Notes under the pieces: generated by a model
Database searches by the model: none
Told to the model about the DNA's origin: nothing
What the model saw: only the letters and a program-made list of their open reading frames with translations
Assembly (NCBI RefSeq): GCF_056746865.1
Contig: NZ_CM163382.1
Length of the DNA: 64,000 nt
Direction: 5' to 3' (one strand)
Made by a program: the position numbers and the translations under genes
In this document: positions 50,877 through 53,606 of the stretch, piece by piece
Layout of the letters: every line of letters starts with the position of its first letter
Position numbering within the stretch: position 1 is the first letter of the stretch

Positions 50877-53606
50877 TTATTCTCCCTTATTGACAGGCAG
50901 GCAACTGCGCTGCTCAAACTTCCCATACATAATGTAATGAAGCAGCGGATTAATGCCTCCTTGGGCCACATCCGGATAGGCTTGCAAATACCAGCGAGTA
51001 TCAAACTGCTCACTAGGGCTATAACCTTTATCCGCCCCCACGCTAATAAAATGCTCAAGAGCTGAGAGCCCAGTGTCTGCAACCTCTGGGTAGCGATGTT
51101 GATACCAGAGTTCATCAAACAATCCTGAAGCGGCAATACGCTCCGCGGCACTCTCTGTAGCTGTTGTTCTGGATGGAGTCTCCTTAAATGTTCTGCCAAG
51201 AGCACGAACTGGGGCTGTAATCTTCCAAGAGACGGTTCTCTTCAAATTCTGAGCGCGTTCTTTTGCTCTATTCAATTGCCGCTCTTTTTGTTTTAACTCA
51301 CAGCTAAGCTGCTCCATATGCCGCGTCATGACTGCCAACTCCTGGAAACGCTCTGCAATATTAGCTTCCAACCTTCCGTTGAGTGTGGTTAGTTCTCTTA
51401 CCTGGTCTTGCAGTACAGACTGCTGGCTCTGCAGCAAGGTTTGTTCCCGGATTAAGGCCTCCTTCTCTTCTTTCCAGGCTTGCTGCTGAGCTCTATATGT
51501 TTCATTGGTCTGTTGTTGTTCACTTGCTGCGCTAAGGAGTGCCTGATCACGTTCTTCCAGCCAACGGGTTAAGGTTGCAATCTCGCTGTACCGCTCATTG
51601 AGCACCGATTCCAACTCATCAAGTTGATGTTGCTTTTCTTTTGCTGCTGAGAGCAATGCAGACTGGGCCTGCTGAAGCGACTCTTGCTCAGCCCTTAACT
51701 GCTGCTCTACGCCAGACAACTTGGTGGTAATCAATTGTTTTTCAATCTCTAGTTCAGTGATAATCTGCTTGTGCTCTTCTAATAGACGTGTTAGAGCTAC
51801 CGTTTCACTAAAACGCTCGGCTAATGCCAAGTCCCGTTCGCTAATCTGTTGCTGATGTGTGGTCTGTTCAACTGCCAGTTGTTGTTGTAATGCTGATAGC
51901 GCCTCTGTGAGTTGCTTATACTCTGCTTGTTGAGCAGCCATTACGTCGCTTTGTGACGCAATATTAGACTCGCGCACTGCTATTAGTTGAGTCAGTTCAT
52001 CACATTGTTTAGAAGCCGCAGCCAAAGCAAGAGTTTGCTCATCTATGCTTTGCTGCAATGTTTGTTGCACAAGTTGCCCTTCTTCCAACTGTTGCTGTAG
52101 ATTTGCACTTACCTTTTTCAGTGCATCATATTCCAAGCCTAACGTATCGTGCTGTGCTTCCAGTAATCCATAAGCATGCTGCAACTGGTTTTTAGTTTGC
52201 TGCTCACCGTCAAGCTGCTGCTGCAATGCATTAGCCTGCTGTTGCAACAAGTTCACCATATTGTCTCGCTCGGCCAGTGTACGAACCTGTGTATCCTGGA
52301 CATGTAGCGCTTGTTCCAACTGAAGCTGTAATTCGGTAATTTGCCGCGAATGTTCGCTCAATGCTCTGTTACTCTTGCTGAGCGCGAGAGTAAGGTGAGA
52401 TGCACGCTGTGTTTCTTCACTCAATTGTAACGTCAGGGTATTGACCTGTTGCTCCAGTTGATGGCGAGCTTGCTCCTGGCTCGTGATGCGACTCTGTTGC
52501 TGCTCTAGTTGATGCAGAGCTGTATGCAACTCATCGTTGGCTTGTATTCGCTCCTGCGACCATACACTCAAGTTTGTTTGGGCCTCATTGAGCTGTTCTT
52601 GCAATAATGCCACCTCAGATGTCAGCGAATTGATATGTTGCTGGGCAAAAGATAGCTCATCAGATTGCACTTGAGCATGTGCAAGCTGCTTTTCCATTTC
52701 TAATATGCTGTTATGTTGTGCAGTAATGCGCTCGGCAAGACGCCCTCTTTCCAATGCCTGCTGTTCTACCAATAGCTGCCGTTCAGCCTGAATGTCATCT
52801 TGTTGTGTAGACAACTGACGTTTTAACAGGGAATTCTCCCAACTCTCGCTACAAGATTTCCCCAAACGACAAAAGATGTCTTGGACTTGTTTGGTTACAC
52901 GAGCATTTTCTGAGATTTTATACAAATTATTAAGTTCTGGAGATTGTTCACACCCCACACCAACTATCCCTAGTCCATGCCCATGAGCGAACTCAAAGTG
53001 TGGATATTGTCGTTTTAATTCATCCAAAAGCTGAAATACGCCAAAACCACGTTCCCTAACATTGGTATCATGCATAATGACCACAGCCCTTTCAGAAAGC
53101 TTTGGCAACCAGCTTTCAAAATCATGGCGTACCGCTTCGAACGTATGCAAACCATCAATATGAAGCAGATCAATGCTACCTTGTGAAAAATGCTCTAACG
53201 CTTGGTCAAATGTACTGCGAATGAGAGTAGAAAAACCTGAATAGTGCTGTTGATTATATTCTGATACTTGCCTGTAAACTTCTTCGCCATACAGCCCCGC
53301 ATGTTCATCTCCCCCCCAGGTATCAACGGCAAAGCAGCATGTTTCTAAATCTAGTTTAGAGACTGCCTGGCAGAATGAGAAATAAGAACTTCCATAATGA
53401 GTTCCCAGCTCAACAATATTTCTTGGCCGCAGTGTGTCAACTAACCAGAAAGCAAAAGGAATATGTTCTAGCCAAGCAGATTGTGCAAGATATGTAGGAC
53501 GCCAAAAAAGAGATGATTTGAAAATGAAATTCAATTCCCCGCCAATATCAGTGATGGGATATAACTCACGATTTTCTACTAACTGACTAATTTTTTGACT
53601 ATCCAT
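50877..53606 (-). CDS. methyltransferase-domain protein with ~550-aa coiled coil and C-terminal repeat motif
   Basis: 909 aa; N-terminal …[15 protein letters not shown]…[37 protein letters not shown]… resembles class I SAM-dependent (Methyltransf_24-like) methyltransferases; residues ~250-800 are Q/E/L-rich heptad-like sequence; C-terminus has two FD..WY…YPDV… repeats. Confidence 0.6.
   Translation of the reverse strand: [909 protein letters not shown]

Follow-up and report, generated by a model that had tools for sequence, protein, structure and literature searches.

How chain length is set in capsules exported by ATP-binding cassette (ABC) transporters is an open question, one that a 2025 review says 'warrants further investigation' (PMC12220298), and the standard model for group 3-type capsules includes no terminator or ruler protein. 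Here we ask whether such a protein is encoded in the kps-type capsule locus of a 64,000-nucleotide stretch of DNA (assembly GCF_056746865.1, contig NZ_CM163382.1; the whole stretch is called the window). The gene in question, at 50877..53606 on the minus strand, encodes a 909-residue protein with a methyltransferase domain, a very long coiled coil and a C-terminal repeat, referred to as MT-CC. A first-pass annotation, made from the letters of the window, had read it as a WbdD-like methyltransferase fused to a coiled coil and as a possible chain terminator and molecular ruler. We find that the comparative evidence is best explained by a chain-terminating sugar O-methyltransferase carried on a coiled-coil spacer that also sets chain length, with a terminal methyl group and length control as plausible consequences; we give this full combination of terminator and ruler about an even chance of being correct. 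It is suggested by conserved protein ends around a variable coil, block insertions and deletions (indels) in that coil, linkage to and a repeat shared with the adjacent 805-residue glycosyltransferase (GT805), fused homologues, and the association of relatives with Wzt-type ATPases. The earlier interpretation is thus partly supported, being right in its logic and wrong as to the enzyme family.

The serotype region opens with an intact gene for a four-part protein

The MT-CC open reading frame (ORF) is complete and uninterrupted, starting at an ATG and ending with a TAA stop at 50877-50879, on a strand that the first-pass annotation had not named; the peptides quoted there were all found, at aa 65-78 and aa 150-181. 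A 99.7% identical gene is named 'class I SAM-dependent methyltransferase' in RefSeq (WP_023154147; SAM, S-adenosylmethionine). On the minus strand, an N-terminal O-methyltransferase domain (aa 1-234, 52905..53606) is followed by an alpha-helical coiled-coil spacer (aa 235-785, 51252..52904), a conserved basic amphipathic linker (aa 786-819, 51150..51251) and a small helical C-terminal domain with two repeats of ~38 aa (aa 820-909, 50880..51149). The architecture that had been described, with its methyltransferase, very long coiled coil and C-terminal repeat motif, was borne out by Pfam, heptad analysis and AlphaFold2 (AF2). The AF2 model of the full-length protein is a monomer with a predicted local distance difference test score (pLDDT) of 69, and coil topology was not decided from it. 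Full-length MT-CC gave SMC-like coiled-coil noise only against NCBIfam. Transmembrane anchoring was considered and rejected, the highest 19-residue Kyte-Doolittle mean being 0.99.

The N-terminal domain is a COMT-like sugar O-methyltransferase relative

Methyltransf_24 (PF13578) was the one significant Pfam domain in MT-CC (aa 65-181, nt 53064-53414; E=5e-25), and this profile match, together with a class I Rossmann-type fold resembling catechol O-methyltransferase (COMT), agrees with the methyltransferase-like N-terminus noted before. The nearest structures to the catalytic domain include sugar and rhamnosyl O-methyltransferases. MeT1 (6g7d), SpnH (4cdz) and CalS11 (3tos) are COMT-like sugar O-methyltransferases with only 12-15% identity to MT-CC; unlike it, they are small stand-alone enzymes without a coiled coil, acting on small glycosides or an oligosaccharide. 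MeT1 was also the sole sequence match to the catalytic domain in the PDB, a weak one (E=0.018) whose alignment spans the IDG.H...HD core. Furthermore, published InterProScan tables assign E. coli homologues to PANTHER PTHR40048, 'rhamnosyl O-methyltransferase'.

Among relatives, E66, G68, G72, D95, D151, G152 and H179 of MT-CC are invariant, H154, D180 and N182 are invariant or present in at least 90% of sequences, and D100 is conserved in all or nearly all. This fits retention of the SAM-binding glycine motif and of the acidic and histidine residues of a metal site, with putative roles for single residues. With these residues conserved, MT-CC fits an active SAM- and metal-dependent enzyme, and it is very probable that it acts as a sugar O-methyltransferase working with the adjacent glycosyltransferase (GT).

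The label 'WbdD-like' survives for the architecture and fails for homology to the WbdD methyltransferase. WbdD never came up in sequence and structure searches with MT-CC, and a kinase domain is absent, so the label describes an analogy, not a family assignment. The presence of a kinase or other domain between methyltransferase and coil, as in WbdD-O9a and ORF6-O7, was considered and rejected, since the helix begins at aa 235.

The coiled coil varies in length between conserved ends

The segment aa 261-798 contains no proline and seven glycines and is rich in Q (17%), L (15%), E (12%) and A (10%). In the best register, the a/d hydrophobic contrast was 0.439, compared with 0.276 ± 0.018 for shuffled sequences, and one heptad register continues for ~170 residues without a break. 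AF2 placed helices at aa 235-350, 359-542 and 549-785 (116, 184 and 237 aa), and Pfam and NCBIfam gave weak matches of coiled-coil type over this region (SMC, ATG16, Fez1, EnvC). The long coiled coil is thus confirmed by heptad contrast, composition and the AF2 helix spanning aa 235-785; Coils predictions published for the K145_5 and K149_5 homologues agree with an extended coiled coil (kTYPr, PMC13171606). Fully extended, the 551 helical residues would measure ~82 nm (0.1485 nm per residue).

A set of 119 homologues from E. coli, Enterobacter, Leclercia, Citrobacter, Buttiauxella and Aeromonas showed how length is distributed. The N-terminal 250 aa are of fixed length and 75-98% identical to the query, and the C-terminal domain measures 82-90 aa at 53-99% identity. 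The coil between them ranges from 407 to 859 aa and is strongly divergent in sequence. Conserved ends of fixed length around a variable middle are the conservation pattern of a spacer. Moreover, pairs of alleles that are 94-99.9% identical elsewhere differ by a single in-frame block of 32, 43, 53, 64, 77, 96 or 149 aa, located at one of two independent sites (around aa 450-480 or 555-640). Unpaired single-block indels would be tolerated by an in-register parallel coil, whereas a single-chain antiparallel hairpin would need paired changes. This argues against a folded-back coil, and the indel pattern is our main reason for proposing a parallel coil rather than a hairpin.

Two further observations concern the coil. 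The 816-aa (L086/L087) and 912-aa (L088/L089) alleles are 97.8% identical apart from one 96-aa coil block and stand in different region-2 gene sets, of the NeuB/CTP-transferase type and the GT92/epimerase/ugd type, respectively, which raises the possibility that coil length is tied to K type and does not vary freely. Tandem repeats as the origin of the coil were found neither by self-BLAST of the coil nor by Tandem Repeats Finder on the gene. The only recurring coil element is the motif ER[FY]xE..A.(L/M)TR..E, with three copies starting at aa 607, 681 and 762 (51300-51830, minus strand). Its core, ER[FY]xE..A..TR, is visible in the family consensus and could be a register landmark or a partner-binding site.

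The C-terminal repeat also opens the adjacent dual-GT2 protein

Beyond the coil, MT-CC has a conserved basic amphipathic segment at aa 788-808. R784, L788, S793, P799, R801 and K808 are near-invariant in the linker, which carries a net charge of +4/+5 and has a hydrophobic moment of 0.47-0.56 compared with a protein mean of 0.26 ± 0.12; AF2 shows a disordered basic stretch of low pLDDT at aa 781-818. We infer that the linker (aa 786-819) is a candidate site of contact with the membrane or a partner.

The small helical domain that follows was modelled with confidence (aa 820-900, pLDDT 82-90). It holds the double FD..WY motif reported earlier, in two copies at aa 830-842 and 868-880, within a repeat of ~38 aa with the consensus F[DN]..WY...YP[DE]V....G..P..HY...G..EGR.P; the second copy ends ...NPLLHY. 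The repeat domain has no Pfam family match. In addition to the two copies at the MT-CC C-terminus (50880-51149), one copy lies at the N-terminus of the adjacent GT (50797-50838, minus strand), which it opens as HFDEHWYLHNYLDV, aa 13-26. A census by regular expression and BLAST on fetched sequences placed the motif near the C-terminus or at an internal junction in 63 of the 148 proteins examined. The repeat also occurs at 2240-2700 of the locus L003 and in L041; in fused homologues, three to five copies stand in tandem where the coil gives way to the GT modules. When the 91-aa C-terminus was used to search for homologues, a search limited by its word index, four fragments only were returned. 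From its sequence distribution, the FD..WY...YPDV repeat may be an undescribed docking module of glycan assembly enzymes.

The adjacent 805-aa glycosyltransferase that had been pointed out (GT805, 48457..50874, minus strand) was confirmed by domain matches to contain two GT2 modules and is the probable capsule polymerase. Its start (GTG at 50874 or ATG at 50871) falls 2-5 nt past the MT-CC stop, with a Shine-Dalgarno-like GGGAGA within the 3' end of MT-CC. The order kpsDMTE, MT-CC, dual-GT2 protein of ~805 aa is seen again in several types of region 2 and beyond the genus Escherichia.

Fused homologues share the layout of known terminator-polymerases

The N-terminal domain belongs to a large family (9175 representative clusters at E<=1e-3, of which 3634 at E<=1e-30), in which the methyltransferase stands at or near the N-terminus of proteins of 267-1866 aa. 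Many relatives, metagenome proteins included, are single polypeptides that combine methyltransferase, short coil, repeats and GT2 or GT4 modules. A scan of 100,044 species genomes, from which 80 loci were retained, found the methyltransferase fused to a GT805-like dual GT2 in 16. One such protein (L019, 1136 aa) aligns with MT-CC aa 21-374 (43%) and then with GT805 aa 6-797 (44%), colinearly; another (L041, 1276 aa) has the N-terminal domain (59%), MT-CC aa 616-904 including the repeats (29%) and GT805 aa 243-805 (52%), with the repeats located at the junction of coil and GT. These colinear fusions indicate that the E. coli proteins correspond to a fused terminator-polymerase layout that has been divided in two and whose coil is greatly expanded. 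Indeed, MT-CC and GT805 together show an enzyme at one end of a coil and GT modules, fused or recruited, at the other.

The fused methyltransferase-coil-GT2-GT2 arrangement is the architecture of the proven terminator-polymerases WsaE (PMC2943079) and ORF6 and WbbB of Klebsiella pneumoniae O7 and O12 (PMC11231755). WsaE, from the S-layer glycan system of Geobacillus stearothermophilus NRS 2004/3a, consists of an N-terminal 2-O-methyltransferase that caps the terminal rhamnose and ends growth, followed by two rhamnosyltransferase domains that make the rhamnan; in vitro, its methylation was independent of chain length (PMC2943079). MT-CC and GT805, colinear with fused proteins of the WsaE layout, resemble WsaE in architecture, and an rml operon lies in the E. 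coli kps locus. The E. coli unit differs in being split into two polypeptides, in a coil expanded to ~550 aa and in its context of Kps export, the WsaE context being Wzm/Wzt with an oligosaccharyltransferase. ORF6 and WbbB resemble the E. coli unit in placing the terminator distally on a coiled coil, with the GT2 polymerase modules at the opposite end; in O7, the polymer is rich in rhamnose and the cap includes a methyl group (PMC11231755).

The likeness to WbdD of E. coli O9a/O8 and K. pneumoniae O3/O5 lies in the same order of N-terminal terminator enzyme, extended coiled coil and C-terminal region, in the ABC-transporter-dependent pathway and in a polymerase that is a separate multi-GT protein. 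In WbdD, the C-terminal region attaches to the membrane and brings in WbdA, a polymerase encoded separately (PMC11231755, PMC3482155). MT-CC differs from the O-antigen prototypes in its methyltransferase family, in having no kinase, in its much longer coil and in the absence of a carbohydrate-binding module (CBM) on KpsT. Kelly et al. (2024) show coiled-coil proteins with a distal terminator to be the mark of chain-length-controlled, ABC-dependent O antigens (PMC11231755).

Relatives frequently stand beside long Wzt-type ATPases

CBM-bearing Wzt proteins go with capped glycans, the CBM extension recognising terminal caps in O-antigen pathways. In an O-antigen-like setting, 23 of the 80 retained loci have a nearby ABC ATPase of 379-522 aa, long enough to accommodate a putative CBM-type extension. 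Few of the family loci are of kps type (L006 and L007, with KpsD and KpsE, and the metagenome locus of P0127, with kpsMTED...KpsC), and the ATPases in kps-type loci carrying the family measure 215-223 aa. The distance from the methyltransferase domain to the next landmark, a rough measure on small numbers, spans 148-444 aa in loci with long Wzt proteins; kps loci gave 241-793 aa and the E. coli-type set 407-859 aa, and the coil of MT-CC exceeds the spacers of the Wzt-type loci in length. The longer spacers of kps loci fit longer rulers for longer capsule chains. From these comparisons of sequence and context, a module of methyltransferase and dual GT2 that is widespread in O-antigen-like Wzm/Wzt loci, often with rml genes, seems to have been recruited into kps loci, where it was split into two genes and its coil expanded.

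The gene is known, and a terminator role would be new for it

The novelty implied by the first-pass annotation was overstated, as the gene and its variable coil are already mentioned in PMC10433991 and PMC13171606. According to Hong et al. (2023), region 2 of several group 3 clusters starts with a gene for a SAM-dependent methyltransferase (PMC10433991). The kTYPr tables (2026) list such proteins, of 857-912 aa, in K3, K114, K121, K142, K145 and K149, and their identity tables link homologues in K98 and K158 to them; K10 has a GT there instead (PMC13171606). The searched literature yielded neither a proposal nor a test of a role for MT-CC as terminator or ruler. The existence of the gene is therefore not new, and its layout is a plausible variant of a known terminator mechanism.

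A mechanism for capping and length control, and its alternatives

In the mechanism that we propose, the C-terminal end of MT-CC, with its basic amphipathic segment and two repeats, would hold the protein at the membrane-bound assembly site and dock the polymerase, which opens with the same repeat. The ~550-residue helix would assemble into a parallel homo-oligomeric coiled coil and hold the catalytic domain as far as ~80 nm out in the cytoplasm. The polysaccharide would grow at its non-reducing end from a lipid-poly-Kdo anchor, possibly extended by a linker, and only chains that reach the distal SAM- and metal-dependent O-methyltransferase would be methylated, probably on a terminal L-rhamnose. 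Methylation would block further extension, so that coil length would set the minimum or modal chain length. The cap would probably not be an export signal, export proceeding through recognition of the lipid end by KpsMT.

Several points weigh against this proposal. KpsT (216 aa) consists of a nucleotide-binding domain only, with no CBM-type extension, so that one hallmark of terminator systems is missing. WbdD-type coupling of cap to export is consequently unlikely here, and export is probably not cap-dependent; the absence of a CBM also predicts that a deletion mutant would still export polymer, of deregulated length. Some group 3 loci (K10) are without the MT-CC gene, so that group 3 assembly as such can proceed without it. 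The searched literature contained no report of a terminal O-methyl sugar on any group 3 K antigen, and in the accepted view, stated for Haemophilus influenzae type b, ABC-transporter capsules have no chain-terminating residue (PMC11231755). As to the coil, its indel sizes are not multiples of 7, and the AF2 monomer interrupts the helix at aa 351-358 and 543-548 with moderate confidence (pLDDT ~70), a model with which a folded-back arrangement is compatible. Finally, an extended coil of ~80 nm would be about four times as long as the WbdD ruler, and such a length is not known for this class.

These points leave room for other readings of the gene. The catalytic domain alone says only 'sugar O-methyltransferase', and MT-CC could be a decorating enzyme that O-methylates internal residues, whether stoichiometrically or not, with a coil that merely oligomerises or tethers it and with neither termination nor length control. 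That KpsT has no CBM suits such a role, as does the treatment of coil length by the kTYPr authors, who regard it as irrelevant to antigen production (PMC13171606). Yet methyl substituents are absent from the figure legend of known group 3 structures (PMC10433991), although K3 and K98 carry the gene; the combination fits a sub-stoichiometric terminal modification. Furthermore, a tether would need neither 400-860 residues nor clean block length variation between conserved ends, WsaE, alike in architecture, is a proven terminator (PMC2943079), and sequence relatives are often found beside long Wzt-type ATPases. We regard decoration as unlikely.

Capping could also occur without a ruler, if the coil folds back or pairs in antiparallel fashion and brings the methyltransferase beside the polymerase; chain length would then be a kinetic outcome, governed by how capping competes with extension or by the terminator-to-polymerase ratio. 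The three-part AF2 helix with its two low-confidence breaks, the indel sizes that ignore the heptad and the chain-length-independent methylation by WsaE in vitro (PMC2943079) all agree with this. Against it stand the lack of any Pro- or Gly-rich turn in 538 residues, the unequal lengths of the three helical segments, and the single unpaired indels at two independent sites in otherwise identical alleles; moreover, folding back of long helices is a common artefact of monomer AF2 models. To this arrangement, too, we assign only a small probability. A scaffold role is very unlikely. In that case, MT-CC would organise the polymerase and region-2 enzymes at KpsMT, while the methyltransferase acts on a rhamnose (Rha)-containing linker, Kdo or lipid, or sets a 'finished' mark. 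The repeat module that is conserved and common to MT-CC and the GT, the basic amphipathic segment, and the finding of one allele in several K types whose remaining region-2 genes are not the same are what such a role would lead one to expect. It leaves unexplained, however, why the catalytic domain should be held at the tip of a spacer that varies in length and why fused homologues keep the order methyltransferase, coil, GT; and the linker-synthesis block is present in K10, which is without the MT-CC gene.

If capping with length control by MT-CC is true, one class of clinically relevant E. coli capsules uses the terminator and ruler logic of O antigens, though with a far longer ruler and without cap-dependent export. 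This class covers the sequence type (ST) lineages ST405 and ST69, among others; related loci are found in Enterobacter, Leclercia and Aeromonas as well as on plasmids. Such length control could account for the way in which capsule thickness differs from strain to strain, a trait that matters for phage sensitivity, serum resistance and the design of glycoconjugate vaccines. The widest form of the proposal we put forward only tentatively and with some doubt: that in E. coli, Enterobacter, Leclercia, Citrobacter and Aeromonas, group 3-type (kps) capsules would be of defined chain length, set by an unusually long methyl-capping coiled-coil ruler of 60-125 nm in the cytoplasm, with the 32-149-aa indels as an evolvable dial for polymer length and capsule thickness, no cap-dependent export and the repeat as docking module, which would make it the first terminator and ruler for a lipid-poly-Kdo capsule.

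Distribution of the gene among E. coli genomes

A gene of the WP_023154147 type was present in 51 of 5426 complete E. coli genomes, and a homologue of the N-terminal domain in 66 genomes, where 14 of the matches were plasmid-borne. Loci of the K3 and K98 types carry the gene. The MT-CC/GT805 pair heads region 2s of differing content, namely the ST405 type, that of an O4:H5 strain with NeuB and cytidylyltransferase genes, and the variant of the window. The full region-2 variant of the window was found in 5-7 of the 5426 genomes, from bovine, sheep and human sources.

Organisation of the kps locus

The kps-type capsule locus claimed for the window was confirmed, with the organisation of E. coli group 3. 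NCBIfam and Pfam matches gave the layout kpsD-kpsM-kpsT-kpsE, serotype region, kpsC-kpsS, without kpsF or kpsU, and the gene order is identical in RefSeq E. coli genomes. Region 1 (53747..58237), in group 3 order and, like all genes of the locus, on the minus strand, was assigned by NCBIfam and comprises kpsD (56492-58237), kpsM (55625-56425), kpsT (54963-55613; 216 aa, without a C-terminal extension) and kpsE (53747-55006). The mechanically called kpsE ORF (TTG start, 419 aa) overlaps kpsT by 44 nt; the RefSeq product in the equivalent locus has 400 aa, so the true start probably lies downstream of the listed one. Beside region 1 lie gspI-J-K-L (gspI-M) and yghD, also on the minus strand. Directly upstream of kpsD is a 123-aa ORF (58264-58635, minus strand) with no family match; a 124-aa ORF occupies the same position in the plasmid-borne loci of group 3B type L086 and L088. 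The 123-aa ORF may be a conserved unannotated component or regulator of region 1.

MT-CC is the first gene of the serotype region (region 2), directly after kpsDMTE. The variable part of region 2, between GT805 and a conserved block, holds genes for a GT2 (409 aa) and an AlgX-related protein (426 aa; 45929-47209), and ugd. The AlgX-related ORF, named 'alginate O-acetyltransferase AlgX-related protein' in RefSeq, sets the region-2 variant of the window apart from the common ST405 type, and a gene of the ALGX family is also present in a distant kps locus (L004).

The conserved three-gene block (40031..44143), delimited by domain matches and RefSeq order, encodes a GT92-like protein (322 aa, 43175-44143), a GT2 (673 aa, 41050-43071) and a GT-B-like protein (343 aa, 40031-41062). 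It is common to K10, K114 and other group 3A loci, with or without the MT-CC gene, and Hong et al. propose for it the synthesis of a Rha-containing linker that joins poly-Kdo to the repeat units (PMC10433991). The 673-aa GT is a paralogue of the 805-aa GT at about 42% identity (kTYPr tables, PMC13171606); Hong et al. call this paralogue 'wsaE' (PMC10433991). Next come rfbB-rfbD-rfbA-rfbC (35758..39306), rfbB assigned by NCBIfam and the other three by ORF size and order against the RefSeq annotation of the locus L001. They supply dTDP-L-rhamnose, the probable substrate sugar of the polymerase and probable acceptor sugar of the methyltransferase. Region 3 (31178..35708) consists of kpsC, with two Capsule_synth domains (33561-35708), and kpsS (31178-32407).

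Other features of the window

Upstream of the kps locus, on the plus strand, are genes for a P4-type integrase-domain protein (3762-5027) and a transposase of the insertion sequence (IS) family IS3 (9607-10653), which together suggest that the capsule genes lie beside or within a genomic island. An Ag43/Cah autotransporter adhesin gene (17712-23554, plus strand) is apparently split by an IS21-family element, with an N-terminal fragment at 17712-18635, the IS21 transposase at 18636-20282, a second ORF extending to 21054 and the remainder of Ag43 at 21083-23554.

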